Shown one piece after another: positions 44,012-60,577 of a stretch of DNA of 64,000 bases. The stretch is from Escherichia phage W22, in sequence record PV159336. One strand, written 5' to 3'. The notes beneath the pieces are model-generated. The model made no database searches and was not told the origin of the DNA. It saw only the letters and a program-made list of their open reading frames with translations. The position numbers and the translations under genes were made by a program. Within the stretch, counting starts at the first letter, position 1. Every line of letters begins with the position of its first letter.

Positions 44012-44176
44012 TTAGCGTACAAAGTTAACTTCTGCTTCTTTCAGCTTCGACACTTCTACATAACCACCATGATCATCTTTAATCCATTCTTTTCCTTTAC
44101 GGATGATAACAGGATATATAGAGTGAGTAAGTTTAGGCACAGATCTTTTTGTTTTAGTGATAGAAATGTTTTGCAT
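44012..44176 (-). CDS. small basic protein (54 aa), absent from ORF track
   Basis: ATG 44176 with AAGGAG RBS 6 nt upstream; ends TAA at 44012-14 just before next gene RBS. Confidence 0.4.
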   Translation of the reverse strand: MQNISITKTKRSVPKLTHSIYPVIIRKGKEWIKDDHGGYVEVSKLKEAEVNFVR

Positions 44177-44236
44177 AGTAGTCTCCTTAGTAAATTTTAC
44201 ATAGAGTCTAGATTATTTAGTAGATAGAGTCAATAA

Positions 44237-44503
44237 CTAATTACTGTTAGATCTGTACTCTGTCTTCCATTCACAATGGTAAACTTCAACAGGTTCTAAC
44301 TTCCAGTGTTCAGGAACTAATTCAGGGCAATATCTACAAAAGAGAAATAGATAGATAATTAAGACAGGTATTAAATAGTAAAATGGTATACGATCATAAC
44401 CATACTTACGAGATAACATGTAGACATAGAGATAGGGTATAACAATTAATCCTATAACTATAAGTAAGAAGAGAAGTATAAACCTTAGTGTAGTAACATC
44501 CAT
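44237..44503 (-). CDS. small membrane protein
   Basis: 88 aa with two hydrophobic helices. Confidence 0.4.
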   Translation of the reverse strand: MDVTTLRFILLFLLIVIGLIVIPYLYVYMLSRKYGYDRIPFYYLIPVLIIYLFLFCRYCPELVPEHWKLEPVEVYHCEWKTEYRSNSN

Positions 44504-44667
44504 AGTATTCTCCTATACAGTAATATACTCTGTTCCTGCCCCTCCATGAGTGACAGGAACAATATCTATAGAGAATACTAACTCGCTTCGCTCGTCACCT
44601 TTCAGGTTTAGGGTAGCATGTTTTTCTGAAAAAGTCAATACTCTCCACAAAACTTTACAAAATACTT

Positions 44668-44940
44668 TTACATAGGTACAACAGAGTCTGTTTTGAAGTC
44701 GTACATATGATTTACACCTGTGATTTTTGACATAGAGATTGCACGTTTAACACCTGCAATTACCTGGTCTGTCTTCTTAATCTCTTCACGGAACTTACGT
44801 ACAGTTAGAGAGAAGAAACGATGATCCATCCATTGACGATTCACACGATCACGTTTGAAGTGACGGAAATCTTCAATCTGTCTATTACGCAATCGGCGCA
44901 GTACATACAGTAATTCATAGTAAGGGTGTTTATTTTTCAT
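44668..44940 (-). CDS. hypothetical basic protein
   Basis: 90 aa ORF. Confidence 0.4.
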   Translation of the reverse strand: MKNKHPYYELLYVLRRLRNRQIEDFRHFKRDRVNRQWMDHRFFSLTVRKFREEIKKTDQVIAGVKRAISMSKITGVNHMYDFKTDSVVPM

Positions 44941-44943
44941 AAT

Positions 44944-45372
44944 TTATTCTCCAAATCGAAAATCGTCAATATCATCAAACCATACACAATGGCGAGTCCT
45001 TTCTTTTTCTGTTGCAGACATTGTTTCAACAGCTTTAGGACTAAGCACAACAGGAATGTAACGAATAGGTCGTTCATAATAGTAGCCATACTTTTCTGTA
45101 TTAGCTGCCTCAAAGACTTTACGGCGTTCTTCAAGATCTTCTATGGTGAATCCTACCATATAGCCATCATATTTGCTACCCCATCCTTCCTCGCTTTCAA
45201 CAACCGGGATATAAAAGCCGTTACGCGTCCCTGACGCTGGTTTTTCTTGAGCCTGAAGGCAAGCCTCCCATCCTGCTTTAAAGACGTTATAGAGCGATTT
45301 ACGCACGTTATGAGTGCCGCTTTCGCTTGCTGGATAGAGTTCATTAAATTTATCTTGGATTTGTTGTGTCAT
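44944..45372 (-). CDS. hypothetical protein
   Basis: 142 aa ORF. Confidence 0.45.
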   Translation of the reverse strand: MTQQIQDKFNELYPASESGTHNVRKSLYNVFKAGWEACLQAQEKPASGTRNGFYIPVVESEEGWGSKYDGYMVGFTIEDLEERRKVFEAANTEKYGYYYERPIRYIPVVLSPKAVETMSATEKERTRHCVWFDDIDDFRFGE

Positions 45373-45515
45373 ACTCGCCCCTTAGTGATTATTTGACCAG
45401 CTAAACAAATAGCTTGTAGTACAATAAAGAAGTAGCCTAATTTTACACTACCCAATACCCAGAATGCAATGTTTGCAAACAAACAAAAAGCAATATTAAG
45501 TCTAAAGAATAACAT
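45369..45515 (-). CDS. small hydrophobic membrane peptide (48 aa), absent from ORF track
   Basis: TAAATG coupling to upstream stop and ATGA overlap with downstream start; GAAGGGG RBS. Confidence 0.4.
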   Translation of the reverse strand: MLFFRLNIAFCLFANIAFWVLGSVKLGYFFIVLQAICLAGQIITKGRV

Positions 45516-45716
45516 TTAATCCCCTTCATATTTAGGTAAAGGCATATATGCCACAATAGGAGGGTAATCAAAGTGAAAATGATGGTTCACCACAATAATC
45601 TTACCAGACATACTTTTATGCACTTCACAATACCCTTTTTCACCATCTTCCATTACCACCACATACTCACCTAGTGGGATATCGTATGGATCTTCTACTT
45701 TTACCCATTCTGTCAT
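45516..45716 (-). CDS. hypothetical protein
   Basis: 66 aa ORF. Confidence 0.4.
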   Translation of the reverse strand: MTEWVKVEDPYDIPLGEYVVVMEDGEKGYCEVHKSMSGKIIVVNHHFHFDYPPIVAYMPLPKYEGD

Positions 45717-45748
45717 TTTGGAAATACCTCTTGTCCATCTTCATGCAT

Positions 45749-45982
45749 TTATAGTAAAGTTTCACAGATTTCATACACATCTTGGTATGTTACAACTGAG
45801 AGATCAGATTCTTGATCTTCGACAAGCATAGCACAAAGAGCTTTAATGTCAATACCTTTACAATGTTCCGTAGCTACACGGTACATTTCACCATCCTCCC
45901 AAACAATTGGTTGCGGGAGCAAAACATCTGTACCATCTTCACAAGTTACAATGTAGTCTGCAATATTATCACGAATTTTCAT
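45749..45982 (-). CDS. hypothetical protein
   Basis: 77 aa ORF. Confidence 0.4.
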   Translation of the reverse strand: MKIRDNIADYIVTCEDGTDVLLPQPIVWEDGEMYRVATEHCKGIDIKALCAMLVEDQESDLSVVTYQDVYEICETLL

Positions 45983-46236
45983 TGTACTACCCCCTTAAAT
46001 CCAGATGTACTGCCAGTTTTAACTTTTGCTTTAAGATGTTCCAACTCTACCATAGGTGTTGCTACTTGTATAGGATTTTCCTCAACCTCATAAATATAAT
46101 ATTCATAATAAGCATACTTACCAATAGAGTGCAGATACTTAATTGCATGTTCAGGCGAATCTGCTTCAACATACCCTAAATCTTTTGTGGTACGACCTTC
46201 GCAATCACCTTCGGTAGTTACATGATAAAGTGTCAT
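45979..46236 (-). CDS. hypothetical protein
   Basis: 85 aa ORF; last gene of - strand block before divergent region. Confidence 0.4.
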   Translation of the reverse strand: MTLYHVTTEGDCEGRTTKDLGYVEADSPEHAIKYLHSIGKYAYYEYYIYEVEENPIQVATPMVELEHLKAKVKTGSTSGFKGVVQ

Positions 46237-46366
46237 AAAACCTCCTCATAGTAAGGTAAAGCCTTGATCAGTTGTTCTGAAGTGCCATTTTGCACCCACG
46301 TAACACCATTGTCAACAGAAACATACCCTTTTTTTGTCAATAAATTTACGCAGACAACCAGTGAAC

Positions 46367-46546
46367 TTATTTTTGTAGATCATTTCTTCTTTCCTTTTTG
46401 ATTACAGCCCCGTCACTTCCTTGCCAAACTTCCGCTCTGAATTCCATCTCAAACCACTCACCACCGCAAAAACGGTTATGTTCAACACGTCTATCTTCCT
46501 TCATTGCTTCTTTAGCTTCGATAGAAGTTAGTTCGATGTTTTGCAT
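46367..46546 (-). CDS. possible small protein (59 aa) in divergent intergenic region
   Basis: ATG 46546 with AAGGAG RBS; longer track ORF 46367-46720 lacks RBS at its start. Confidence 0.3.
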   Translation of the reverse strand: MQNIELTSIEAKEAMKEDRRVEHNRFCGGEWFEMEFRAEVWQGSDGAVIKKERRNDLQK

Positions 46547-46664
46547 TTGTTTTTCTCCTTTCATTTGGTATGCGCTAATCTTAACAAAATAAAAATGTAT
46601 GTCAATACTTGATTTGAAATTAGTTTCTGGTACTCTGTGTGTATCGTAACAAAAGAGGTTAGAT

Positions 46665-46955
46665 ATGAACATCACACTAGCAACTAAGAATATTACAGAA
46701 ACTTTTGATGGTTTTGGCATTATTATTGCTGTTCATGGGCATAACGAAAAATGGTTAGCCTCTTTTGAAGAGGACAAAGAACGCAATGTACGTTTGAATG
46801 CACCAATCAAAGTTTTACACCAGGTAGGTGAGAATAAGAAACAATGGAGATCATATAAAGAGTGGAACATTACAAACGAGTTAATACACAAACTTGACAA
46901 AGTGATAAACATGTTCGACAATGCACCAAGCAGTGCAAAACGTGTCTTAATGTGA
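46665..46955 (+). CDS. hypothetical early protein
   Basis: 96 aa ORF with AGAGG RBS; first + strand early gene. Confidence 0.45.
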   Translation: MNITLATKNITETFDGFGIIIAVHGHNEKWLASFEEDKERNVRLNAPIKVLHQVGENKKQWRSYKEWNITNELIHKLDKVINMFDNAPSSAKRVLM

Positions 46956-46967
46956 GAGGAGAACCAA

Positions 46968-47255
46968 ATGTATTATTCACAAAATGAAGTAGCAAACATT
47001 AAACTGGCAGTGGGCGATCTTATTGTGTCACCTAACTACTATTGGGATAACACAGATTTGGTTGAAGTAGTAACCTATGTTGGAGTTGAAGGTATTGTGC
47101 TCTACACACTAGGTGGAGGTGTTGTTGGGGAAATGGAACGTTATACGACAACGAAGAAACTGGTAAGCTCTTATCGCATGTTTTTACACCAAGGTTCGGA
47201 AGAGTATACAGCTTTCTTGTTGAAATTAGATGCAGATCGGGAGAAGGCACGATGA
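46968..47255 (+). CDS. hypothetical early protein
   Basis: 95 aa ORF with GAGGAG RBS. Confidence 0.45.
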   Translation: MYYSQNEVANIKLAVGDLIVSPNYYWDNTDLVEVVTYVGVEGIVLYTLGGGVVGEMERYTTTKKLVSSYRMFLHQGSEEYTAFLLKLDADREKAR

Positions 47256-47605
47256 AAATTGTACACGATGAAATTCAATTTGAAGAGAGTGATCTTCTTG
47301 ATCTGGATGTGACACTAAGTAAACTGATCTACAACGCACTTTCTGCATATCGTGCAAAAGTGATAGCCACAAACAATGTTAAAATTCCTAGCGTGTTACT
47401 TCGTCGGATGTACCCACACGCTAAAGGTGACTATCTACCTTATATGGAAGAACGAGCAGCAGAACACTGGTTAGAAATTCTTGAAAAAATGGAGTCCTCT
47501 TTTAAAGATTCAACTCCACCGGAAGAAGTTAATGAAAAACAACGGCAAGAGCGTTTAGAAGGTCGTATTTTGTTTGCTAAGTATTTCCATAATTTGTGGA
47601 GCTAA
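47252..47605 (+). CDS. hypothetical early protein
   Basis: 117 aa ORF, ATGA overlap with upstream stop. Confidence 0.45.
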   Translation: MKIVHDEIQFEESDLLDLDVTLSKLIYNALSAYRAKVIATNNVKIPSVLLRRMYPHAKGDYLPYMEERAAEHWLEILEKMESSFKDSTPPEEVNEKQRQERLEGRILFAKYFHNLWS

Positions 47606-47685
47606 ACATATCTGGTAAAATCACTTATATGTTCTTAGTATACTTGTGTAAAGAAGTTATCGGTCTAATTAATTAAGGGGAAGAT

Positions 47686-47937
47686 ATGATTCAGTTTCAA
47701 AAAGGTCAAAAGATGACAGTTCACGATGCAGAGGAAATGGAGTTTGCACTTAAACTTCTCGAAAATGCTGGGTTTGTGTGGATCAACGGTGGAGAGAAGC
47801 CTACAGCTTGGCTTCCGCATGAGAAAATAGCCAACCACACCTTCCCTGATAGTATCAATTGGCATTCTGATGGTAAGATTTGCCGTGGAAGTTACCCAAC
47901 AGGTGTTGAGTGGACTATTAAATTAGGAGGGCTTTAA
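47686..47937 (+). CDS. hypothetical early protein
   Basis: 83 aa ORF with GGGGAAG RBS. Confidence 0.45.
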   Translation: MIQFQKGQKMTVHDAEEMEFALKLLENAGFVWINGGEKPTAWLPHEKIANHTFPDSINWHSDGKICRGSYPTGVEWTIKLGGL

Positions 47938-47938
47938 T

Positions 47939-48277
47939 ATGTTTAGTAAAGAAATGAGAGAAGTAATCGCCACTTTGGTAGTTGATCATGGTGTTGAAGT
48001 TGAGCGTCACGTTTGGAACGATGAACCTCCTTTCTTCGATTTGGCATCACGAGCTAAAAGTCATATGCACCTGCTGGAAGACGGTAATGAGTTTGTTCTC
48101 CGTATGCGTTATGATCGAGAGTTTCGAATTCCGCTTGACACTGAACCAGATGGTGTAGTAATGTGGTTGGCAGAACATTTCGCATACGATGCACTACATG
48201 GAAGAAGTTTTGGTAATGAGCGTTGGGATGCCATTTGTCGTAAGCATAATATTGAACCAGAGTACGGAGTTTTATAA
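47939..48277 (+). CDS. hypothetical early protein
   Basis: 112 aa ORF. Confidence 0.45.
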   Translation: MFSKEMREVIATLVVDHGVEVERHVWNDEPPFFDLASRAKSHMHLLEDGNEFVLRMRYDREFRIPLDTEPDGVVMWLAEHFAYDALHGRSFGNERWDAICRKHNIEPEYGVL

Positions 48278-48528
48278 TGTTAAGTATCAAACCTAAAATG
48301 ATAACAGCAGATGAAGCAGACTTTATTTTCAAATGTGGACGTGTATGGAGAGAATTCACAAAAGGGAATGAAGTGGTGGTTGTTGTCGAACACAAGATAT
48401 CTATCCAGGATCTGTTTGGACAATATGTTGATGTTATTAAATTAGGTATTGACAAGGGTTTAGTTGAGGTGTTAACATTAGATCAAGTTGAAGCAGAGCA
48501 CCTCGATAAAGTGGTGGTTGAATTTTAA
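48277..48528 (+). CDS. hypothetical early protein
   Basis: 83 aa ORF, overlapping start/stop. Confidence 0.45.
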   Translation: MLSIKPKMITADEADFIFKCGRVWREFTKGNEVVVVVEHKISIQDLFGQYVDVIKLGIDKGLVEVLTLDQVEAEHLDKVVVEF

Positions 48529-48548
48529 AATACAGACGGGAGAAAGGT

Positions 48549-48722
48549 ATGAGTTTCTTTGTTACAGTATTTATGGCTATCTGGATTGTAGTCTCACTCG
48601 TTCTTTTCCTGGTGGGTTGTCTGGAAGAGATTAAGAAAGCGGTTATTTGCGGTTTCTTTGGCTTTATTATCTCTCCTGCCTGGATGTGGTTCTTCATTAT
48701 GATTGGTTTCCTTAAAAGGTAA
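48549..48722 (+). CDS. small membrane protein (57 aa), absent from ORF track
   Basis: ATG 48549 with GGGAGAAAGG RBS; two hydrophobic segments. Confidence 0.4.
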   Translation: MSFFVTVFMAIWIVVSLVLFLVGCLEEIKKAVICGFFGFIISPAWMWFFIMIGFLKR

Positions 48723-48736
48723 GTGAGGAATAAAGA

Positions 48737-49174
48737 ATGAGTAAAACAAACGCAATCGCAGATAAAGCAACGGATGTACTTCTGAACATGGTTAACGTCA
48801 CTATTCAAACAATGAGTGATGTTGTAGAGTTTGGAAAACAACAAATTCCAGAAGTAATCCATCAATTATTAGTGTGGAAAGCAGTATCCGCAGGTTTATG
48901 GCAACTTTTTAGTATTTGCTTTATGTTTATTACTTTTATTGCTGTGCGGAACCTCGTAAAAGCAATTAAAGATAAAGAATGCCTGTGGTCACGAGATCGC
49001 TATGGTGAAGTATCTGCTTTACCTATTGTTGGTCTTGTTGTCTGTGCTTTCTTTTTCTTTTTAGGATTTGTTATTTTCTTTTCGAATTTTGATTGGCTAA
49101 AAATCATTATTGCACCAAAAGTGTATCTGATTGAATTTGCTGCTGATTTAATTCGTTCATCTCAACAAAAATAA
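48737..49174 (+). CDS. membrane protein
   Basis: 145 aa; GAGGAA RBS; multiple hydrophobic helices. Confidence 0.45.
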   Translation: MSKTNAIADKATDVLLNMVNVTIQTMSDVVEFGKQQIPEVIHQLLVWKAVSAGLWQLFSICFMFITFIAVRNLVKAIKDKECLWSRDRYGEVSALPIVGLVVCAFFFFLGFVIFFSNFDWLKIIIAPKVYLIEFAADLIRSSQQK

Positions 49175-49185
49175 AAGGGGTTAAA

Positions 49186-53919: not shown

Positions 53920-53973
53920 TTGACATTGCACTAAAACCTGATAAGCTATCTTAAAGCGGGAATAGTTCCCGCT
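53920..53973 (+). promoter_or_regulatory. promoter-like -35 plus 5'-UTR hairpin cassette
   Basis: TTGACA 53920-25 with weak -10; hairpin AGCGGGAA-TAG-TTCCCGCT 53955-73. Confidence 0.5.
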
Positions 53974-53991
53974 TACATAGGATAAAACTTT

Positions 53992-54138
53992 ATGAAACAA
54001 TATGTAATGAGTATTCATACCAAAAACGGCGCTACTGTTACGACTCCGGCACGGTTTGCACTTGTAAACCGTTGCAAGAGACTAAAACGAGAGCTAAAAA
54101 ATAACCGTGCAACGGGCTTTAAACGCTGGGGAGGATAA
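53992..54138 (+). CDS. small basic protein (48 aa), absent from ORF track
   Basis: ATG 53992 after hairpin; K/R-rich; stop TAA 54136-38. Confidence 0.4.
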   Translation: MKQYVMSIHTKNGATVTTPARFALVNRCKRLKRELKNNRATGFKRWGG

Positions 54139-54401: not shown

Positions 54402-54402
54402 C

Positions 54403-54957
54403 ATGGGGCGTGAATATGTGATCCAGTCCTGGGTAAAGCATGACGCAAATGATCCGCGCATAATACCAGATGACATGATCGATCACATGGTAGGGTATAG
54501 CGGGGAGCAGATAGGAAATCGAGCGGCAAAGAGCAACGGCAACACCAGGACGAGATCCGTTCGCCCTGGATGGCTGGCGAATGGTAACGCTGACATTGCA
54601 AGCGCCGCAGATCCAAGCGATGACGCTAAAAATAATCCCTTATACAGCATTGATCCGGCTTTTAAGGTGTTGGAAGAGTATCCCGCTAAATTAGCCGCAC
54701 TAGACAAGGCATACGAAGAAAAGCGCATGGCCTGGACTGTATACAACACCGCTAAAATGGTGCTAGATGCAAAACTAATTAAAGCCCAGGAGAAGATCAA
54801 TAAACTTGTTACCATAGCACAAGAGGAAGACCAGGGCGACCAGGAGGAAGAGGAAGAAATCATGCCTACCTTGGAAGAGGAAGAGATCCAGCCATACATG
54901 CCGACGGAAGAGGAAAAAAGACAAGCCTTAAAAAATTATGAAAATTGCATTGTGTAA
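54403..54957 (+). CDS. hypothetical early protein with acidic C-terminal tail
   Basis: 184 aa; start overlaps upstream stop (TAGCATG); C-terminus EEDQGDQEEEEE. Confidence 0.5.
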   Translation: MGREYVIQSWVKHDANDPRIIPDDMIDHMVGYSGEQIGNRAAKSNGNTRTRSVRPGWLANGNADIASAADPSDDAKNNPLYSIDPAFKVLEEYPAKLAALDKAYEEKRMAWTVYNTAKMVLDAKLIKAQEKINKLVTIAQEEDQGDQEEEEEIMPTLEEEEIQPYMPTEEEKRQALKNYENCIV

Positions 54958-54960
54958 GGC

Positions 54961-55016
54961 TTGACATATGCAAACAAGCACCGTAATATATACCACATAG
55001 AACGGGGCAACGCCCC
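54961..55016 (+). promoter_or_regulatory. sigma70-like promoter plus 5'-UTR hairpin cassette
   Basis: TTGACA 54961-66, 17 nt, TAATAT 54984-89; hairpin GGGGC-AAC-GCCCC 55004-16. Confidence 0.6.
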
Positions 55017-55038
55017 ATAAAGTGAAATAAAAAATCAC

Positions 55039-55066
55039 TTGACACCTGAAATCAGTAAGCTATAAT
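55039..55066 (+). promoter_or_regulatory. sigma70-like promoter (tandem, no hairpin)
   Basis: TTGACA 55039-44, 16 nt, TATAAT 55061-66. Confidence 0.65.
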
Positions 55067-55103
55067 GCTTATATAAATTAAAGCGTTACTAAGGAATAAA
55101 ATC

Positions 55104-55469
55104 ATGGCTAAAAATATCAATGTTTCTGCTTATGCTACCCTGGCTAACACTGCTAAAATTGAACTGTCCAGCATTGAAGCGGTACATATTAGCGCCCGTC
55201 GCTGGTTTCAAAAGTCTTATGGTAATACTTATTTCTCTTTGATGGTTGACGTTGAGATCGGCGGTAAACTGATTGAAGTCGTTAACGTTCCGTTTCAATA
55301 TGGCTATGGGGATCATTTTGATACCGTTGCCCTAGAAGAGTTTAGCAAGGTTATCAACCTGGAAGGTAAAGAGTTTTCAAATTATGCTTACCTTTCCCGT
55401 TTTTGCCGTGACAATGGGATCGCTGTATACAGTCATGCAAGCGATGTAAAACGTAAAAAAGATTTATAA
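55104..55469 (+). CDS. hypothetical early protein
   Basis: 121 aa ORF with AAGGAA RBS. Confidence 0.5.
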   Translation: MAKNINVSAYATLANTAKIELSSIEAVHISARRWFQKSYGNTYFSLMVDVEIGGKLIEVVNVPFQYGYGDHFDTVALEEFSKVINLEGKEFSNYAYLSRFCRDNGIAVYSHASDVKRKKDL

Positions 55470-55475
55470 AAAGCA

Positions 55476-55533
55476 TTGACAGCACGAATAAAAAGCATAT
55501 AATACTTATATCGAGAGCGGGAATAGTTCCCGC
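55476..55533 (+). promoter_or_regulatory. sigma70-like promoter plus 5'-UTR hairpin cassette
   Basis: TTGACA 55476-81, 16 nt, TATAAT 55498-55503; hairpin GCGGGAA-TAG-TTCCCGC 55517-33. Confidence 0.7.
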
Positions 55534-55557
55534 CTCACTGAAAAAGAGATTAACATC

Positions 55558-55797
55558 ATGGCTAAATCTAAAATGTACAACGGTCACAAAAATAAAACTC
55601 ATTGGAATGTAAGCCTTTGGATTAATAACGATCCAGGTTTTTATAATATGGCAAAAGAATTTATAGCCGTGAACAACAATAAAGATAACGCCGCGCGTGA
55701 AATGATGTCACTACTTAACGAAATGGGCCAAAATACTACGCCAGATGGCTATAAATTCAGTAAAACCAGTATCCGCGCCGCTATGGTAGGAATGTAA
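55558..55797 (+). CDS. hypothetical early protein
   Basis: 79 aa ORF. Confidence 0.5.
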   Translation: MAKSKMYNGHKNKTHWNVSLWINNDPGFYNMAKEFIAVNNNKDNAAREMMSLLNEMGQNTTPDGYKFSKTSIRAAMVGM

Positions 55798-55806
55798 TAA
55801 AAGCAG

Positions 55807-55866
55807 TTGACAACGTTTTTTAATCTGGTATAGTTTATCACATAGGGCGGGAAATGGTTTCCCGCC
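55807..55866 (+). promoter_or_regulatory. sigma70-like promoter plus 5'-UTR hairpin cassette
   Basis: TTGACA 55807-12, 16 nt, TATAGT 55829-34; hairpin GGCGGGAAA-TGG-TTTCCCGCC 55846-66. Confidence 0.65.
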
Positions 55867-55888
55867 AAATGAAAGAAAGGTTATCATT

Positions 55889-56116
55889 ATGGCTATCGTT
55901 ATTGTTCGCGTATCCGGCACGGTTGGAATCTCCCAGGTAGTAGCAGTTATCACCGAGAAGAAAGGGGATGATCTTCACTCCTCCTTGAATAGCTGGGCGG
56001 TCGCTAACTTTGGGCAATGGTCGAGCGTTGAGTACATCGAATCCTACCAGGTGCCAACGATTAGCCTGACCGATCTCAATGTTGATCGTCTGTTATGCCT
56101 GGATGAATTAATCTGA
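55889..56116 (+). CDS. hypothetical early protein
   Basis: 75 aa ORF. Confidence 0.5.
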   Translation: MAIVIVRVSGTVGISQVVAVITEKKGDDLHSSLNSWAVANFGQWSSVEYIESYQVPTISLTDLNVDRLLCLDELI

Positions 56117-56125
56117 AAAAGATTG

Positions 56126-56181
56126 TTGACACGGGAAAGAAAAAGAGTAAACTGTATTACGTAGGGCGGCAATAGTGCCGC
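56126..56181 (+). promoter_or_regulatory. sigma70-like promoter plus 5'-UTR hairpin cassette
   Basis: TTGACA 56126-31, 16 nt, TAAACT 56148-53; hairpin GCGGCA-ATAG-TGCCGC 56166-81. Confidence 0.55.
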
Positions 56182-56206
56182 TCATAACAGAAGAGAGATT
56201 ATCACG

Positions 56207-56422
56207 ATGGTTAATATCCGCACACTGTTAAAAAATGCAAGTCAAGTTTTATTTTCAGATGACGAGTATTTCAACAAAGACATTACAGGCGTGAAAAATT
56301 TAAAAGACGTGAAGGATGTTATCGGTATCCGTGGATCTTTACGTAAAGGTGACATATACGGTAACAAGGTGCAATATAAACTGTCAAAAGATTATGATTT
56401 TACTTTGACAATTATTTCATAA
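56207..56422 (+). CDS. hypothetical early protein
   Basis: 71 aa ORF. Confidence 0.5.
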   Translation: MVNIRTLLKNASQVLFSDDEYFNKDITGVKNLKDVKDVIGIRGSLRKGDIYGNKVQYKLSKDYDFTLTIIS

Positions 56423-56428
56423 AACTAC

Positions 56429-56489
56429 TTGCAAACCTGGTAAAATAAAGTAAACTATATTCATTAAGGCGGTGGAATAGCCCACCGCC
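56429..56489 (+). promoter_or_regulatory. sigma70-like promoter plus 5'-UTR hairpin cassette
   Basis: TTGCAA 56429-34, 16 nt, TAAACT 56451-56; hairpin GGCGGTGG-AATAGC-CCACCGCC 56468-89. Confidence 0.5.
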
Positions 56490-56512
56490 TAACAAAGAGA
56501 AGAGGAAACATC

Positions 56513-56683
56513 ATGATCACTTTCGCTACCCGTGAAGCCGCTCGCAACGTTGCACGTAAAGTTAATGCCGCCAACCTGGGCGCTACGCTTAAAGCCCCGG
56601 TTAAAGATGAATCAGGAAAATGGATCTTCCCTGGTCTGCGTCACGCTGATAAGCTGGGAACATTAACGTTAAAAAATAAATAA
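56513..56683 (+). CDS. small protein (56 aa), absent from ORF track
   Basis: ATG 56513 after hairpin; GAGGAAA RBS. Confidence 0.4.
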   Translation: MITFATREAARNVARKVNAANLGATLKAPVKDESGKWIFPGLRHADKLGTLTLKNK

Positions 56684-56690
56684 TATTCGC

Positions 56691-56749
56691 TTGACAGTAG
56701 CATCATTTATAAGTAAAGTAACAACAACGGCGGGAAATGGTTTCCCGCC
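56691..56749 (+). promoter_or_regulatory. sigma70-like promoter plus 5'-UTR hairpin cassette
   Basis: TTGACA 56691-96, 17 nt, TAAAGT 56714-19; hairpin GGCGGGAAA-TGG-TTTCCCGCC 56729-49. Confidence 0.6.
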
Positions 56750-56769
56750 ATCAATAAAGAGATAAGATT

Positions 56770-57129
56770 ATGAAATCAGTAAAAGCAATTAAAACTTACA
56801 TTGTGTCGGCTATTTCTTTTGATGGTACTACAACCGAAAAAGAAAAGATCACCGAACTGATGCGCCGTTTTAACTCTGAATACTGGTATCAATCTAATCG
56901 TGATCGTTATAATAACAATATGGTACAAGGTGTCAAAAGCTGGTTACAAGGTTTACCGTCAGATATCAATATCGCTTTTAATTATAACGAGATCGATCAA
57001 TTATTAATTGAATGGAAGTACATAAAAGAAACAAGCAAAGAAACAACCGTTACCCGTGAGCGGGAAAATTATTGGTTATATATTGCAAGCATGATCGTAA
57101 CTTTGGCAAAATATCATAACGTAGCGTAA
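56770..57129 (+). CDS. hypothetical early protein
   Basis: 119 aa ORF. Confidence 0.5.
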   Translation: MKSVKAIKTYIVSAISFDGTTTEKEKITELMRRFNSEYWYQSNRDRYNNNMVQGVKSWLQGLPSDINIAFNYNEIDQLLIEWKYIKETSKETTVTRERENYWLYIASMIVTLAKYHNVA

Positions 57130-57143
57130 TCGAGAGGAAAAAC

Positions 57144-57281
57144 ATGAACGCATCACAGCAGATCGAAAAATTCAACCGCAATAAAGCGCGTAAAGATTGG
57201 AACGAAGAGATCACCAAGAAAGGCGACAAGCGGAACAAAACAAAAAGAGATCGCAGCAGCAAAAGATACTGGAACGAATAA
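57144..57281 (+). CDS. small highly basic protein (45 aa), absent from ORF track
   Basis: ATG 57144 with GAGAGGAAA RBS; K/R-rich; followed by terminator. Confidence 0.4.
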   Translation: MNASQQIEKFNRNKARKDWNEEITKKGDKRNKTKRDRSSKRYWNE

Positions 57282-57283
57282 CA

Positions 57284-57308
57284 AAAAGGGCGCAATAAGC
57301 GCCCTTTT
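57284..57308 (+). terminator. rho-independent terminator
   Basis: AAAAGGGCGC-AATAA-GCGCCCTTTT. Confidence 0.7.
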
Positions 57309-57398
57309 AGCTTATATAGAGGCTTGTTGCTTATAGGCAAGGGTAACGCCAGGATAAGCCTATAAACCACGTTAGACGGCTTTACAGGAGCTTTAAAA

Positions 57399-57581
57399 AT
57401 GAAATTAGAGGAAATAAGCAAGGCACTAGCCCAGGGGCAAAGGTTATGCGCCCGATATCGTGATCAATATGGTTTCATAACTAGCGGCGTGATCCTGGGG
57501 ATTGAAGACAATAAGATTTTTATTGACACGTTGAAAAACGTTGTATATAGTGACAATATAATCTCAATAAAACATATATGA
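57399..57581 (+). CDS. hypothetical early protein
   Basis: 60 aa ORF with CAGGAG RBS. Confidence 0.4.
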   Translation: MKLEEISKALAQGQRLCARYRDQYGFITSGVILGIEDNKIFIDTLKNVVYSDNIISIKHI

Positions 57582-57589
57582 GGCAAGAA

Positions 57590-57991
57590 ATGAAAAAATT
57601 ATTGATAGCTGGTTTAATCTCTTTTGGCATGGTTGGAACATCTAGCGCGGCGATATCCTCCACAGTAGCAGAATTAAGCGCCGTTGATGCAATGGAAAAC
57701 GTCATGATCATTAATAATGCGATCCCCGATGAAATCATGGAGGATTCACACATGATCGCTTATGGTGCTGTTACACAATTAACGGCAAAAATAGATAAAT
57801 CTATTGTTAATGGCTTAAATGAAGATGTACCATGTGAAATTATTACCAGTGTGCTAACGACTCAAAATTTTACGCCGTGGTTAAAAAGTATTCAAAAAGT
57901 ACACAGTACAGCCGCAGATCGTAGCAATGAAAAACTAGTGTCAGCACTTGCAACGTATACCCTAGCAAAATGCACCGAAATAAAAGATTGA
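57590..57991 (+). CDS. secreted early protein
   Basis: Start taken at MKKLLIAGL (GAGG RBS); signal peptide ending SSAAIS. Confidence 0.5.
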   Translation: MKKLLIAGLISFGMVGTSSAAISSTVAELSAVDAMENVMIINNAIPDEIMEDSHMIAYGAVTQLTAKIDKSIVNGLNEDVPCEIITSVLTTQNFTPWLKSIQKVHSTAADRSNEKLVSALATYTLAKCTEIKD

Positions 57992-58016
57992 CAACATAGA
58001 AAGCACGTTATAAGAT
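57988..58016 (+). promoter_or_regulatory. sigma70-like promoter (no hairpin)
   Basis: TTGACA 57988-93, 17 nt, TAAGAT 58011-16. Confidence 0.5.
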
Positions 58017-58038
58017 ACACACAACAAAGGAGAACTAC

Positions 58039-58341
58039 ATGAACGGCATAGCTAAAACGTTTTTTCTTTTTTCTGGTGTAAATGACCCATCAATAAAAGT
58101 CGATAGCGTAAAAGAAAACAATACTATCACCGCTAAATTATTTCAAGATGAAACAAATAACGTGCTAATCATTAATCTTAAAGAAATAACAAAAGGTTAT
58201 TATACTATTGCTTACCATGCGATCTATAATGCTGATACTAGTGAGGAAGTGCAAACAAGCAACAACGAAAGCGCGGCGCTACCTGGTGATCTGGTGCTGG
58301 GCGTTATCAGTTTAATTGTCAATGATTTTTTTAAGGAGTAA
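58039..58341 (+). CDS. hypothetical early protein
   Basis: 100 aa ORF with AAGGAG RBS. Confidence 0.5.
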   Translation: MNGIAKTFFLFSGVNDPSIKVDSVKENNTITAKLFQDETNNVLIINLKEITKGYYTIAYHAIYNADTSEEVQTSNNESAALPGDLVLGVISLIVNDFFKE

Positions 58342-58345
58342 AACC

Positions 58346-58441
58346 ATGCCCTATTTACATTTATTTTTCGGGATCTTATTGACAGGATCTTTTTTCTTCT
58401 GTATGCTTGTTTCTATTGTAAACCACGTTTTAAAACATTAA
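58346..58441 (+). CDS. hydrophobic micro-protein (31 aa), absent from ORF track
   Basis: ATG 58346 with TAAGGAG RBS; single predicted TM helix. Confidence 0.35.
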   Translation: MPYLHLFFGILLTGSFFFCMLVSIVNHVLKH

Positions 58442-58599
58442 GGAAACAGCATGAAAATTATTCCCGTACAGTATAGCGTAATAAATCCAGCATATGAGGA
58501 AGGAAGGAAAACAAGCATGGCTTTATGTTGTATTGCTACTATAGCCATGTTATTATACACTGTGTTTTAATAGGTTTTATAGTTGTACGCTTTAAAGGC

Positions 58600-58627
58600 T
58601 TGACAATTTTTTGTTATGCTTTAAAAT
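58600..58627 (+). promoter_or_regulatory. sigma70-like promoter (no hairpin)
   Basis: TTGACA 58600-05, 16 nt, TAAAAT 58622-27. Confidence 0.45.
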
Positions 58628-58670
58628 ATATCTTGAAAACGGCAAAGGCCGCAAACAAAAGGGTAAAATT

Positions 58671-58994
58671 ATGAAATCTGTGATCGGTGTTTATTTGGAT
58701 AACTCTGATTTTTTCTATCATCGTGCGCGTTTACTTGATGCGATTGAAATGATAGAATCAGGCTTTAAAGAGTATCGCCTTGCACATGATGACCTGGAAG
58801 CATTACAGGGCAATAGTGTTTTTACATTGCAAGCTAAAGCACTATGTAAAAGCCGGATCGACATTGCAAGCAAAAAGATAGAACGCGGCATGTCCTGGTT
58901 GCGCACCGCAGAAATCAACATGGGGCAATGGTACGGCGAAAACTTAGAAAATAAACTCACTTTTGTAAATGTAGAAAATATTAAAGATTATTGA
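58671..58994 (+). CDS. hypothetical early protein
   Basis: Start taken at MKSVIGV, downstream of promoter; 107 aa. Confidence 0.45.
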   Translation: MKSVIGVYLDNSDFFYHRARLLDAIEMIESGFKEYRLAHDDLEALQGNSVFTLQAKALCKSRIDIASKKIERGMSWLRTAEINMGQWYGENLENKLTFVNVENIKDY

Positions 58995-59056
58995 TTGACA
59001 GCACACCTGATAAGTAATATATTGTATCTCATAGAGCGGGGAAATGGTTTCCCCGC
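58995..59056 (+). promoter_or_regulatory. sigma70-like promoter plus 5'-UTR hairpin cassette
   Basis: TTGACA 58995-59000, -10 TATATT about 59018-23; hairpin GCGGGGAAA-TGG-TTTCCCCGC 59036-56. Confidence 0.6.
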
Positions 59057-59076
59057 CTTAACAGAAGAGATAAGAT

Positions 59077-59361
59077 ATGAAGATCACAAAAGCACTTTCC
59101 AACTATGCAGCACGTCGCGGCTTATGCTTAACCGTTGAAAACTTAGGGAAAGAAGATTTTTTGTGCTTTTGGGAGCTTGAGAATGATAATGAGTGGATCT
59201 TCTCTTATTCTATCTGCAAAGATCAAAATGGTTGCTTGTTAACCTGGCGCGGTAATATCTATTTGCCGGAAGAAATAAAACAAGAATTACCAGGCACGAT
59301 CATGACTGAGAAACAGCTTAAGGAAGTGATCAATTTTGTAGGGCAAAACATTAAAAAATAA
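59077..59361 (+). CDS. hypothetical early protein
   Basis: 94 aa ORF. Confidence 0.5.
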   Translation: MKITKALSNYAARRGLCLTVENLGKEDFLCFWELENDNEWIFSYSICKDQNGCLLTWRGNIYLPEEIKQELPGTIMTEKQLKEVINFVGQNIKK

Positions 59362-59362
59362 T

Positions 59363-59423
59363 TTGACAGTAGGCAAACAACGTAGTAAAGTTTATCACAT
59401 AGGGCGGGAAATGGTTTCCCGCT
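59363..59423 (+). promoter_or_regulatory. sigma70-like promoter plus 5'-UTR hairpin cassette
   Basis: TTGACA 59363-68, 17 nt, TAAAGT 59386-91; hairpin GGCGGGAAA-TGG-TTTCCCGCT 59403-23. Confidence 0.6.
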
Positions 59424-59445
59424 CACAGCAGAAGAGAAACAAATC

Positions 59446-59616
59446 ATGATCCCAACTATGTTTTACGTATCGCGCAAAGGTCACAATATTTTTTGGTCTG
59501 AAGATTTAAATGAAGCCATGACGTTTGCCCGTGATCGTGTTGCTATCGGTGGCGTTAATATTACCGTAACCGATGAAAACGGCATTGAATACTATAACGG
59601 CGACGATGAAGAGTAA
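59446..59616 (+). CDS. small protein (56 aa), absent from ORF track
   Basis: ATG 59446 after hairpin; acidic C-terminus. Confidence 0.4.
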   Translation: MIPTMFYVSRKGHNIFWSEDLNEAMTFARDRVAIGGVNITVTDENGIEYYNGDDEE

Positions 59617-59623
59617 TTAATAA

Positions 59624-59644
59624 GGCGGGGGAGTATTCCCCGCC
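59624..59644 (+). promoter_or_regulatory. stand-alone 5' hairpin (no recognisable promoter)
   Basis: GGCGGGG-GAGTATT-CCCCGCC between two ORFs; may terminate upstream or mark a processed 5' end. Confidence 0.45.
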
Positions 59645-59663
59645 ATCAATAAAGAGATAAATC

Positions 59664-59933
59664 ATGAAAATATCATTGGACGTTGCAATCAAGGCCATCG
59701 AATCCGGTTACACCCTGGTAAAAGATGATAAGGCTAAAATAGTGCATCATGTTAGCAAGGAAACAGGCGAAAGCATGATCACATATAAAGCCGCCTACTT
59801 TCTCCAATCAGTAGCAGATCCGCGCGTACAGCGCCAGGTCACGGCGGCTATTGCTAAAAAATTATGTGCTTTACAGGGCACAAGTTTTAACGAGATCCCG
59901 CCGTGTTTTGACTGGTCGAGCTTGAAAAAATAG
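59664..59933 (+). CDS. hypothetical early protein
   Basis: 89 aa ORF. Confidence 0.5.
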   Translation: MKISLDVAIKAIESGYTLVKDDKAKIVHHVSKETGESMITYKAAYFLQSVADPRVQRQVTAAIAKKLCALQGTSFNEIPPCFDWSSLKK

Positions 59934-59934
59934 T

Positions 59935-59990
59935 TTGACAATAATTATAAATAGGGTAGAATGTATTGCGTAGGGCGGCAATAGTGCCGC
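59935..59990 (+). promoter_or_regulatory. sigma70-like promoter plus 5'-UTR hairpin cassette
   Basis: TTGACA 59935-40, 16 nt, TAGAAT 59957-62; hairpin GCGGCA-ATAG-TGCCGC 59975-90. Confidence 0.65.
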
Positions 59991-60013
59991 TCACAACTAA
60001 AAGAGAAATCATC

Positions 60014-60208
60014 ATGGCGCTTAAAAAACTAACAAGCAATACTCGTTGGGATGAAATTGACGGGGAAGTATACATTTTCGCCCGTAAACCAGGTGATCAA
60101 AAATGGTCAAAGGCTTTTACTTGTCACCCTGCAACAATAGATCTAATAAAAAGTAAAGGTTTTCGTGAAGCAGTAGCGAGAAGTTTACTGATCCCTTGTA
60201 AAAAATAG
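60014..60208 (+). CDS. hypothetical early protein
   Basis: Start taken at MALKKL (track ORF runs through the hairpin); 64 aa. Confidence 0.45.
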   Translation: MALKKLTSNTRWDEIDGEVYIFARKPGDQKWSKAFTCHPATIDLIKSKGFREAVARSLLIPCKK

Positions 60209-60209
60209 T

Positions 60210-60269
60210 TTGACAATATGCGGTTATCTGGTAAAGTGTACCACGTAGGGCGGGAAATGGTTTCCCGCC
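60210..60269 (+). promoter_or_regulatory. sigma70-like promoter plus 5'-UTR hairpin cassette
   Basis: TTGACA 60210-15, 16 nt, TAAAGT 60232-37; hairpin GGCGGGAAA-TGG-TTTCCCGCC 60249-69. Confidence 0.6.
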
Positions 60270-60287
60270 AGAATAGAGAGAACTAAA

Positions 60288-60392
60288 ATGATTATTCTTA
60301 CCATGATGTGCGCGGCGGTTATTATTCCTTTGATAACGCTTATTGTTTCTGAGATCGATGATCTTCTCTTTGAAAGAAGTTTAAAAAAGTAA
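60288..60392 (+). CDS. hydrophobic micro-protein (34 aa), absent from ORF track
   Basis: ATG 60288 after hairpin; single TM helix. Confidence 0.35.
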   Translation: MIILTMMCAAVIIPLITLIVSEIDDLLFERSLKK

Positions 60393-60455
60393 TTGACAAC
60401 GGCTAATAAGCTGATAATATGTATCACATAGGGCGGGGCAATAAGGCAACGCCCA
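60393..60455 (+). promoter_or_regulatory. sigma70-like promoter plus degenerate hairpin
   Basis: TTGACA 60393-98, 16 nt, TAATAT 60415-20; imperfect hairpin GGGCG...CGCCC 60431-55. Confidence 0.5.
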
Positions 60456-60472
60456 CTAATGAGGGTAGCATC

Positions 60473-60577
60473 ATGTTAGAGAAAATTTTCACGGTTGTAA
60501 TAGTGGGCCTGGCGTTATCGGTTGGAGTGATTGCAACTATGGCTAACATGATCCTATCTTCCCACGGTATTGGATAA
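60473..60577 (+). CDS. hydrophobic micro-protein (34 aa), absent from ORF track
   Basis: ATG 60473; single TM helix. Confidence 0.35.
   Translation: MLEKIFTVVIVGLALSVGVIATMANMILSSHGIG

Follow-up and report, generated by a model that had tools for sequence, protein, structure and literature searches.

The ten short open reading frames (ORFs) reported here from Escherichia phage W22 (PV159336) are very probably ordinary small protein-coding genes, already known from related phage genomes. By sequence, the source is a Justusliebigvirus (phi92-like) E. coli myophage; the window, by which we mean the whole 64,000-nt stretch analysed, matches Justusliebigvirus genomes at 96-97% nucleotide identity. 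The original prediction had offered the ten ORFs as candidate genes missed by a 60-aa ORF cut-off. All were found exactly where it placed them, with ATG starts and the lengths it gave, and each occupies a gap between longer genes; it gave no strand, and 44012 and 45369 (ORFs are named here by their lowest coordinate) lie on the minus strand (Table 1). That they are genes is upheld in at least eight cases and plausible in the remaining two. Only the predictor's own 60-aa cut-off kept them out of its gene track; relatives already carry them as annotated genes. Phage phi92 (2012) annotates six (gp207, 211, 219, 228, 235 and 237) and the BASEL phage Bas61 (EmilieFrey) nine, with identical lengths, and the hypothetical proteins of these two phages are 90-100% identical to the ORF products, at the same positions and of the same lengths. 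Unlike the W22 window, phi92 is without the 59446 and 60288 modules, and it leaves 58346 and its homologue of 60473 unannotated. Nine of the ten ORFs match PHROG v4 families.

Table 1. Small genes, promoter-hairpin cassettes and a terminator-like hairpin in the W22 window.
Feature	Coordinates	Strand	Counterpart or remark
54-aa basic protein	44012..44176	-	phi92 gp207, phrog_10388
48-aa hydrophobic protein, two predicted TM segments	45369..45515	-	phi92 gp211, phrog_27111
57-aa protein, two predicted TM segments	48549..48722	+	phi92 gp219, phrog_22950
Cassette before 53992: TTGACA, 16 nt, TAAGCT, hairpin AGCGGGAATAGTTCCCGCT	53920..53973	+	
48-aa very basic protein (pI 11.7)	53992..54138	+	phi92 gp228, phrog_8393
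Cassette before 56513: TTGCAA, 16 nt, TAAACT, hairpin GGCGGTGGAATAGCCCACCGCC	56429..56489	+	
56-aa basic protein, small alpha/beta fold	56513..56683	+	phi92 gp235, phrog_13689
45-aa very basic protein, T7 gp1.1 family	57144..57281	+	phi92 gp237, phrog_2490
Terminator-like GC hairpin, A/T runs on both sides (AAAAGGGCGCAATAAGCGCCCTTTT)	57284..57308		directly after ORF 57144-57281
31-aa peptide, one predicted TM segment	58346..58441	+	least supported candidate
39-aa protein, hydrophobic C-terminal stretch	58451..58570	+	eleventh small gene, not in the original prediction
Cassette before 59446: TTGACA, 17 nt, TAAAGT, hairpin GGGCGGGAAATGGTTTCCCGCT	59363..59423	+	
56-aa acidic protein (pI 4.3)	59446..59616	+	phrog_20874; accessory gene absent from phi92
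Cassette before 60288	60210..60269	+	repeat at the left boundary of the 183-bp module
34-aa protein, N-terminal TM segment	60288..60392	+	phrog_7482; cargo of the 183-bp accessory module
Cassette before 60473	60393..60454	+	-10 hexamer overlapped by ATG 60419 (start in some GenBank records)
34-aa peptide, one predicted TM segment	60473..60577	+	phrog_14631

The ten ORFs lie in the putatively early, highly variable region of the phage, a type of region made up mostly of genes of 30-120 codons. In DNA of 37% GC, frames of 31-57 codons are common by chance, and the gaps between 43 and 62 kb hold 48 small ORFs of 25-59 aa. Among these 48, complete intactness in relatives combined with third-position-biased variation was found only in ORFs of the original prediction, barring one antisense frame. 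That antisense frame shares its third positions with 59446. Third-codon-position bias with an excess of synonymous change characterizes 44012, 53992, 56513, 57144, 59446 and 60473; diverged full-length homologues elsewhere were found for 48549 and 60288; 45369 and 58346, both confined to the genus, are no more than plausibly coding. Homologues outside Justusliebigvirus exist for 44012, 48549, 53992, 56513, 57144, 60288 and 60473, and wherever a relative aligns to one of the six candidates without close relatives beyond the genus, that candidate is intact. Three competing ORFs in the same gaps (44069+, 56532+ and 57153-) were rejected: they lack third-position bias, and most of their changes are non-synonymous; 56532+ is additionally broken in most relatives. 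A search of the accessible literature found no transcriptome, Ribo-seq or proteome for the phi92-like phage group.

Good Shine-Dalgarno (SD) sequences at correct spacing had been claimed for every ORF. When SD strength was ranked against all 736 ATGs in the region, this stood for the four strong cases (44012, 45369, 48549 and 58346; dG -7.4 to -9.0, best 2-4%) and moderately for 56513, 57144 and 60473 (about the best 10%), and it did not stand for 53992, 59446 and 60288, whose SDs are no better than those of 17-32% of random ATGs. A weak SD of the AGAGA type is also found on accepted longer genes behind the same cassette (55558, 56770, 59077, 59664 and 60014).

A possible objection is that the conservation comes from cis-acting elements (promoters, hairpins, recombination sites, small RNAs) or from very recent horizontal transfer, rather than from selection on protein. 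Conserved non-coding repeats are indeed abundant in the region, the segment 60420-60801 has 92% identity to phage FV3 and was apparently exchanged recently, and 60288 shows zero variation among close copies. We nevertheless consider this explanation very improbable: what variation there is clusters at third codon positions, most of it synonymous, protein-level homologues of 26-67% identity with matching length and start occur in unrelated phages, an Rfam search of the window found no RNA family, and AlphaFold2 models 59446 with a confident compact fold (pLDDT 85).

The two minus-strand ORFs are part of a tightly packed leftward operon. The ATG of 44012 is preceded by the SD TAAGGAGA at a spacing of 5 nt; the frame is intact in 13/13 relatives, its variable sites at the first, second and third codon positions number 1/1/12 (p = 8e-5), with 13 synonymous vs 3 non-synonymous changes, and full-length homologues of 40-61% identity occur in Certrevirus-like, Cronobacter, Erwinia and Klebsiella phages. 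ORF 45369 starts directly behind the TAA of its upstream neighbour (TAA-ATG) and overlaps the next start with its own stop (ATGA); it is likewise intact in 13/13 relatives, with variable sites 4/2/7 (p = 0.1) and 8 synonymous vs 5 non-synonymous changes. It is confined to Justusliebigvirus, where each of 55 records matches it at 90% identity or more, and we regard it as a probable, not a proven, gene.

Where the original prediction counted four hydrophobic micro-proteins we count five (45369, 48549, 58346, 60288 and 60473), all of which presumably insert into the inner membrane by their one or two predicted TM segments. ORF 48549 has the SD GGGAGA at 5 nt, is intact in 14/14 relatives with only 3 variable sites (1/0/2), and has an annotated, similarly hydrophobic homologue of 58 aa in Phapecoctavirus (26-33% identity). 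Downstream of it are encoded a 145-aa protein, hydrophobic by reading its sequence, and an AAA ATPase. ORF 58346 begins 5 nt past the upstream stop, with the SD TAAGGAGT at 6-nt spacing, and is intact in 13/13 relatives; it too is confined to Justusliebigvirus (55 records, none below 90% identity), and is annotated in Bas61, KMB37, ZYD and Eryne and not in phi92.

The genus-restricted hydrophobic ORFs (58346, 45369 and perhaps 48549) might instead be untranslated chance frames in U-rich intergenic or UTR sequence, which gene callers would annotate as gap fillers. Their third-position bias is not significant, and the substitution patterns of 45369 and 58346 (the latter 1/2/4) do not discriminate coding from non-coding sequence; in 58346 the changes are 4 non-synonymous to 3 synonymous, and that ORF matched nothing in the PHROG v4 search and has no homologue beyond Justusliebigvirus; with 3-13 variable sites, openness across 13 genomes is expected even without selection; and a hydrophobic translation is the default outcome of T-rich codons. 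Against this, the SDs of all three are strong (best 3-4% of ATGs), 45369 is coupled at either end within an operon that has overlaps among its other genes, 48549 has its diverged Phapecoctavirus homologue, the substitutions in 58346 are conservative (T13S, M20I, K30R), and the 58346 and 45369 frames are open in all 55 records. On balance we find the chance-frame explanation unlikely. Close to 58346 lies an eleventh small gene, 58451, intact in 13/13 relatives; its product matches phrog_10979 (E 3e-8, residues 6-38 of 39) and, by side-by-side reading only, resembles end to end a 39-aa 'membrane protein' of Phapecoctavirus (L002 18075-18194).

The eight ORFs other than 44012 and 45369 lie in a rightward array, many genes of which have their own strong sigma70-type promoter, a GC-rich hairpin within ~10 nt, a weak purine-rich SD and an ATG. 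The strict form of this cassette, TTGACA-N16/17-TAnnnT-N5-14-GGSGG, occurs in nine copies vs 0.02 expected, all on the plus strand between 53.4 and 61.3 kb. The ORFs had been described as often sitting directly behind such a cassette, which holds for five of the ten (53992, 56513, 59446, 60288 and 60473). Judged by promoter consensus only, host RNA polymerase would transcribe the cassettes immediately after infection, and each transcript would start with the hairpin, located as it is just downstream of the -10 box, which could serve as a 5'-end stabiliser and/or attenuator. The cassettes are points of gene gain, loss and exchange between related phages: modular indels between relatives terminate at them, and segments that the W22 window has in common with the rV5-like phage FV3, and with A7_1, have both ends at cassettes.

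These cassettes resemble the PeSL (promoter-early stem-loop) cassettes of T4-type phages (Arbiol et al. 2010, PMC2839356; Comeau et al. 2014, PMC4122927) in their consensus sigma70 promoter with an A-rich upstream tract, G/C stem-loop, SD and start codon; in both systems the repeats precede small ORFans in a variable region, and indel or replacement junctions fall inside the repeats. They differ in that a W22-type phage is not T4-like, and in that the W22 stem-loop is in every case placed immediately after the -10 box, whereas in phi1/RB49 it lies mostly between or over the promoter boxes.

The 183-bp module carrying 60288 illustrates such exchange: KMB37 and alia lack exactly this module, and their junction falls within the repeat GTAyCACrTAGGGCGGG. 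The ORF is present as 100% identical copies in only 10 Justusliebigvirus records and is intact in 2/2 aligning relatives, with zero variable sites; Mooglevirus ESh21 and Seuratvirus have annotated homologues that match over the full length and from the start (44-56% identity).

For the last ORF, 60473, the start needed to be decided. It is carried by 228 phage records, rV5-like phages included, and is conserved as a pair together with the 71-aa gene 60588-60803. Several GenBank records (among them KMB37, Schickermooser, ZYD and Eryne) annotate a 159-nt gene encoding a 52-aa protein from ATG 60419, which is in frame with 60473 through an open frame, and tblastn aligns all 52 residues in other genomes at 84-92% identity. 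We nonetheless hold this longer protein to be highly unlikely. The extension 60419-60472 has its variable sites distributed 6/5/6, with 17 non-synonymous changes to 2 synonymous ones, as against 4/1/9 and 6 to 12 in 60473 itself; its start is missing in 4/19 relatives; its ATG overlaps the -10 hexamer of the ORF's own promoter and the extension runs through the hairpin; and KMB37 and alia have another promoter fused at the extension. The PHROG profile is 34 aa long, 105 nt are annotated in FV3 (FV3_00160) and Bas61 (bas61_0135), and an SD (GAGGG) lies 7 nt upstream of 60473. The 34-aa start of the original prediction is thus correct, against those annotations.

Apparent frameshifts were called for 60473 in 4/21 relatives and for 56513 in 6/19; these are probably alignment-edge effects, since tblastn shows the frames open there. 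ORF 59446 is intact in 16/16 aligning relatives, and the nearest solved folds to its model include ClpS, T4 Dmd and AcrIF9. The likeness to ClpS, to the Dmd antitoxin and to small anti-CRISPR proteins is at fold level only, with no sequence similarity (2-19% identity), and the match, involving a common topology and marginal scores, is a lead rather than evidence of membership. As these nearest folds are small inhibitor or adaptor proteins, the modelled 59446 product probably inhibits some host protein stoichiometrically.

A role in host takeover, suggested originally for such small peptides, gains support from homology for 53992 and is weakly suggested for 57144; these are the only two ORFs that we could link, by sequence, to known T7 early proteins (gp0.6 and gp1.1). 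The 53992 product is homologous to T7 gp0.6A: BLASTP aligns the two over 50 aa at 56% identity (E 9e-18), and tblastn finds 67% identity to T7-like phages over residues 1-39. The ORF is intact in 13/13 relatives, with variable sites 1/0/5 and 6 synonymous vs 1 non-synonymous changes; the GGAGG at its 3' end serves the next gene (TTG start at 54141). Like gp0.6A, a class I early protein, the product is small (48 vs 53 aa), basic and encoded behind a host-type promoter, although T7 is a podovirus and W22 a 148-kb myovirus; a counterpart of the T7 0.6B frameshift extension was looked for and is not conserved. MreB is the reported target of T7 Gp0.6 (PMC6965359; bioRxiv 10.64898/2026.09.14.751387), and from the identity to gp0.6A the 53992 product most likely inhibits the host MreB cytoskeleton.

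The 57144 product matches Pfam PF08200 (Phage_1_1) at E 1.1e-11 and 45.5 bits (cut-off 21) over profile positions 2-40 of 40; it shares 46% identity with T7 gp1.1 and keeps nearly all of the core KGxKxNKTKRDRSxKRxW; homologues in Phapecoctavirus and A7_1 show 58-62% identity, and the variable sites are 2/2/8. The gp1.1 family has no known function, although co-expression of gp1.1 and Ocr did stop protein synthesis in the host (PMC7064336); its homologue 57144 is possibly linked to host shut-off. In T7 the gene has T7 RNA polymerase promoters (phi1.1A and phi1.1B) and adjoins gene 1.2, of whose product no homologue was found in the window. ORF 57144, in contrast, stands last in a host-promoter unit, which ends at the terminator-like hairpin; the hairpin scan called this hairpin on the minus strand only, and as its sequence is symmetric it would function on the plus strand as well.

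The ten short ORFs, each called here by its first coordinate, are all present at the predicted positions with ATG starts, 44012 and 45369 on the minus strand. The finding is correct and already known, because these ORFs are annotated in public genomes and represented in PHROGs; they were absent only from the track used for the original prediction, with its 60-aa cut-off. The first six are annotated in phi92 (gp207, gp211, gp219, gp228, gp235 and gp237), nine in Bas61 at exactly these lengths (the last one 105 nt), and eight or nine of the ten in KMB37, ZYD, Eryne and 92CQ. PHROG v4 gave full-length family matches for nine, 58346 being the only one of the ten with no match there. Since curated relatives already carry these genes, the gain in gene finding is small, and the added value lies in the placement of two ORFs in T7 families, one demonstrated and two probable annotation corrections, and a genomic context resembling the promoter-early stem-loops (PeSLs) described in T4-type phages. 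A 60-aa ORF cut-off misses about a fifth of the genes in such phage regions.

The window belongs to the Stephanstirmvirinae, genus Justusliebigvirus, the phi92-like E. coli myophages of ~148 kb; its positions 44,000-60,600 are 96-97% identical to Justusliebigvirus genomes and, patchily, ~86% identical to Phapecoctavirus. Genes run leftward left of ~46.7 kb and rightward right of it, and the sign of the GC skew flips there. Because an IMG/VR scan for relatives gave only 5 loci, we took the comparative set from GenBank records, fetching 23 homologous loci: 14 Justusliebigvirus (including phi92 and the BASEL phage Bas61/EmilieFrey), 6 Phapecoctavirus, 2 Vequintavirinae (A7_1 and FV3) and the more distant L016, which was left out of further comparison. 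Near-identical genomes are filed as 'Campylobacter phage' (A145, C3 and others), 'Pseudomonas phage PsgM04F' and 'Acinetobacter phage ABPW7', and vB_EcoM_ZYD, a Justusliebigvirus, is deposited under Vequintavirus; these are probably host or taxonomy mislabels. The searchable literature yielded no transcriptome or Ribo-seq study of Phapecoctavirus, phi92 or rV5.

From an alignment of the 19-kb region with all loci, we scored every ORF for variable sites by codon position, synonymous and non-synonymous codon changes, and frame integrity.

Coding test for the ten short ORFs, and positions of example promoter-hairpin cassettes
Feature	Position (ORFs: first coordinate)	Strand	Variable sites at codon positions 1/2/3	Third-position excess, p	Synonymous:non-synonymous	Intact loci
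ORF	44012	-	1/1/12	8e-5	13:3	13/13
ORF	45369	-	4/2/7	0.1	8:5	13/13
ORF	48549		1/0/2	0.26	2:1	14/14
ORF	53992		1/0/5	0.018	6:1	13/13
ORF	56513		5/0/12	0.002	15:3	13/19
ORF	57144		2/2/8	0.019	7:4	13/13
ORF	58346		1/2/4	0.17	3:4	13/13
ORF	59446		4/0/14	1e-4	14:4	16/16
ORF	60288		0/0/0		0:0	2/2
ORF	60473		4/1/9	0.017	12:6	17/21
Cassette	55807-55866	+
Cassette	59363-59423	+
Cassette	60210-60269	+
Cassette	60393-60454	+

Six ORFs (44012, 53992, 56513, 57144, 59446 and 60473) carry a coding signature; the substitution patterns of 45369, 48549 and 58346 are uninformative, and 60288 shows no variation. Eight of the ten are intact in every aligned locus. The shortfalls of the other two, 56513 and 60473, are frameshift calls in the pile-up, which we take to be alignment-edge effects because tblastn gives open frames in those loci. 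As a control, all 48 gap sORFs of 25-59 aa were scored in the same way; full integrity combined with third-position bias occurred only in the predicted ORFs, the sole exception being an antisense frame with the same third positions as 59446. Rival ORFs in the same gaps fell short: 44069 on the plus strand has 1 synonymous versus 15 non-synonymous changes, 57153 on the minus strand has variable sites 8/2/2, and 56532 on the plus strand keeps its frame in 1 of 19 loci. A long antisense ORF, 57050-57421, has its third positions in common with 57144 and takes in a terminator-like hairpin as well as portions of two other genes; here a Pfam match (see below) decides the strand in favor of 57144.

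A good Shine-Dalgarno sequence (SD) had been claimed for every ORF. Ranking the duplex energy with the 16S 3' end among all 736 ATGs of the region, we found strong SDs (best 2-4%) at 44012, 45369, 48549 and 58346 and moderate ones (about the best 10%) at 56513, 57144 and 60473; those of 53992, 59446 and 60288 are weak, no better than 17-32% of random ATGs. These last three have an AGAGA-type motif, as do accepted longer genes behind the same promoter-hairpin cassette, so that weakness of the SD goes with the cassette and does not count against the ORFs. The number of hydrophobic products needs correcting, from four to five.

Homologues outside the genus were found for several ORFs. Those of 44012, in Certrevirus-like, Cronobacter, Erwinia and Klebsiella phages, are 40-61% identical; that of 48549, annotated in Phapecoctavirus and 26-33% identical, resembles it in size and hydrophobicity; and 56513 occurs in both genera and, at 38%, in A7_1. 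For 57144, identity is 58-62% in Phapecoctavirus and A7_1, with tblastn matches in 135 phage records. Start-aligned homologues of 60288, at 44-56% identity, are annotated in Mooglevirus and Seuratvirus, and 228 records, rV5-like phages included, carry a homologue of 60473. The remaining two, 45369 and 58346, are restricted to Justusliebigvirus, where each occurs in 55 records at identities of 90% or more. Because they have strong SDs, are tightly coupled to their neighbors and show conservative substitutions, we consider 45369 probably a gene and 58346 a plausible one, with the odds fairly well in its favor. A syntenic 147-nt Phapecoctavirus ORF was rejected as the orthologue of 45369; it is orthologous instead to a disrupted gene at 46233-46383 (minus strand). 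This disrupted gene is homologous to a conserved one of 48-49 aa (phrog_2381), which measures 147-150 nt in KMB37, Schickermooser and tuntematon; here it is divided between two reading frames, within or beside a run of seven A at ~46329-46335, and this could reflect a pseudogene, a sequencing error or slippage.

The original prediction had suggested that small basic or membrane peptides of this kind are host-takeover or superinfection-exclusion effectors. This is partly supported, in that at least eight of the ten are genes, the other two plausibly so, and two of the ten are homologues of T7 early proteins; as genes, they were already annotated in relatives. The first, 53992 (phrog_8393), is 56% identical to T7 gp0.6A over 50 aa (BLASTP, pairwise E 9e-18), and tblastn of T7 gp0.6A on the window matches 53989-54126 (E 9e-14); this similarity, significant over most of its length, identifies 53992 as a gp0.6A homologue. 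A promoter-like site (TTGACA-16-TAAGCT) and hairpin lie 72 nt upstream, and may serve early expression by host RNA polymerase. T7 gp0.6 also has a longer frameshift form, 0.6B, only 'possible' even in T7, which has no counterpart for 53992; a fusion of this type was rejected, the next ORF (54141-54401, in another frame) having no similarity to the C-terminal part of 0.6B. T7 Gp0.6 is reported to target MreB and distort cell shape, giving rounded or lemon-shaped cells (Molshanski-Mor 2014, as cited in PMC6965359 and bioRxiv 10.64898/2026.09.14.751387).

The second, 57144, matches Pfam PF08200 (Phage_1_1) at 45.5 bits (gathering threshold 21; E 1.1e-11) over profile positions 2-40 of 40. Identity to T7 gp1.1 is 46%, the basic core motif KGxKxNKTKRDRSxKRxW is retained nearly throughout (14 of 18 residues identical), and K26, G27, K29, N31, K32, T33, K34, R35 and K40 are invariant across 57144, T7 gp1.1 and three relatives. 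By these matches, 57144 is a member of PF08200, the T7 gp1.1 family. One paper notes effective shut-off of host protein synthesis by Ocr and gp1.1 (PMC7064336). Two 'hypothetical' micro-proteins can be named gp0.6A-like and gp1.1-like, which supplies a host target, MreB, that is open to direct testing in a group of therapeutic-type coliphages. No homologue of other T7 early proteins (gp0.3, 0.4, 0.5, 0.7, 1.2, 1.4-1.8, 2, 2.8, 3.8 and 4.1) was found in the window. PF08200 was the only Pfam family above threshold among the ten ORFs, weak matches to DUF4222, TRF, MOSC and YbgT being below cut-off and discarded, and NCBIfam matched none of the ten. A PDB sequence search with 59446, 56513 and 57144 gave nothing meaningful; a moderate structure model of 56513 had no match in a fold search; 59446 matched only its own family and uncharacterized proteins in BFVD, a resemblance to the T4 antitoxin Dmd being a marginal lead at fold level; and no Rfam family was detected anywhere in the window.

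The ORFs had been described as often lying behind a promoter-hairpin cassette; this holds for five of the ten, which follow one directly, and the other five do not. The pattern TTGACA-N16/17-TAnnnT-N5-14-GGSGG has nine strict copies in the window versus 0.02 expected, all on the plus strand at 53.4-61.3 kb (53469-61251), and looser copies precede 53992 and 56513. Each cassette runs from an A-rich tract through a near-consensus sigma70 promoter, a GC hairpin and a purine-rich weak SD to the ATG. The hairpin, typically GGGCGGGAAATGGTTTCCCGCC (-15 to -19 kcal/mol), begins at about the expected transcription start and is not followed by a T-run, and so does not look like a classic intrinsic terminator. 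The repeats form families D1-D10, and the genes behind them encode 34-141 aa with no known function.

Gene gain and loss follow these cassettes. A 183-bp module carrying 60288 (60255-60410) is precisely missing in eight of 13 Justusliebigvirus loci, with its junction inside the repeat GTAyCACrTAGGGCGGG. A hairpin or promoter also lies close to one or both ends of several further presence/absence gaps (e.g. 53160-53502, 56199-56443 and 59944-60200). Segments shared with the rV5-like FV3 (59935-60256 and 60420-60801, 87-92% identity) are bounded by cassettes, as are those shared with A7_1. Such cassette-bounded gain and loss accounts for 59446 and 60288 being accessory genes, and the cassette architecture for differences of whole small genes between close relatives. 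The pair at 60473-60803 (plus strand), a 34-aa TM peptide and a 71-aa protein (phrog_5988), has ~92% nucleotide identity to FV3_00160 and FV3_00159; four Justusliebigvirus relatives retain the peptide yet have something else in place of the 71-aa gene. Short segments of jumbo coliphages (PBECO4, G17) and of rV5-like phages match 55491-55632 (plus strand), a cassette with the 5' end of a 79-aa gene (55558-55797), at 82-96% identity; this is another widely exchanged module.

In layout the cassettes match the PeSLs of T4-type phages, one subclass of which also places the stem-loop after the -10 (PMC2839356; PMC4122927). Both have a repeated sigma70 promoter with an AT-rich upstream tract and a stable G/C stem-loop, then an SD and start codon; both lie ahead of small ORFans in a hyperplastic region; and in both, indel and replacement junctions between close relatives fall in the cassettes. 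By analogy, the cassettes would work like the PeSL system outside the group where PeSLs were defined. We stop short of counting them as PeSLs. They lie in a phage outside the T4-like group, and two further PeSL traits, termination or attenuation of transcription by the stem-loop and mini-circles formed through recombination between cassettes, are ones that they may share. We put at about even chances the proposal that PeSL-like cassettes in phi92-/rV5-like myoviruses are portable units moving single micro-protein genes between genomes, even between subfamilies. If so, their cargo would range from small membrane peptides shared with Mooglevirus and Seuratvirus to homologues of the T7 takeover proteins gp0.6 and gp1.1, and the array would be a naturally shuffled library of early effectors. 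The rV5 genome paper had already reported "88 mainly small ORFs" as a block, together with a non-coding stretch (PMC3606486). In the searchable literature, which does not extend to subscription papers on phi92 and PVP-SE1, we found none that connects PeSLs with rV5-/phi92-like phages.

Some public annotations in this group look wrong. Several GenBank records lengthen 60473 to 52 aa from an ATG at 60419. This extension varies equally at all codon positions (variable sites 6/5/6), with 2 synonymous versus 17 non-synonymous changes, and 4 of 19 relatives have lost its start. Its ATG shares sequence with the -10 hexamer of the promoter that belongs to this gene, and the added codons continue across the hairpin. 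The PHROG profile of the family is 34 aa long. The 52-aa annotation reaching into the promoter is thus wrong, and the 34-aa start originally predicted is right. A further ORF outside the original ten, 58451-58570 (plus strand), encodes 39 aa, hydrophobic toward the C-terminus, and its matches are phrog_10979 'membrane protein' and gp148, a membrane protein of Phapecoctavirus; KMB37, Bas61, ZYD and Eryne instead annotate an overlapping 49-aa ORF, 58525-58674 (plus strand), which has no PHROG match and is probably a mis-call. In the gene at 61239-61664 (plus strand), the start used in relatives (ATG 61239, a 426-nt CDS) sits in the loop of a cassette hairpin (GGGAAATGGTTTCCC), and the real start is likely ATG 61275, behind AAAAGG; gene starts placed in the hairpin loop are probably wrong in public annotations.

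Two neighboring stretches stand out. The 164-nt intergenic segment 44504-44667 (minus strand) has almost no variable sites in 13 Justusliebigvirus genomes, where the flanking genes vary by ~4%. It contains a promoter-like site (TTGACT-17-TACCCT), a GTTCCTG...CAGGAAC hairpin and a 45-aa TTG ORF (44513-44650), annotated in some relatives and with no PHROG match; the segment may be regulatory rather than coding. In the gene-poor stretch 51920-53190 there are three direct repeats of ~75 nt (52116-52336), along with iteron-like ATGAGAATCATT repeats (52357-52470). Almost none of the small ORFs there carries a coding signature, and in most of them the frame is disrupted in some relatives. The stretch is analogous to a 2.6-kb non-coding region in rV5, and may be an origin or other cis-acting region.
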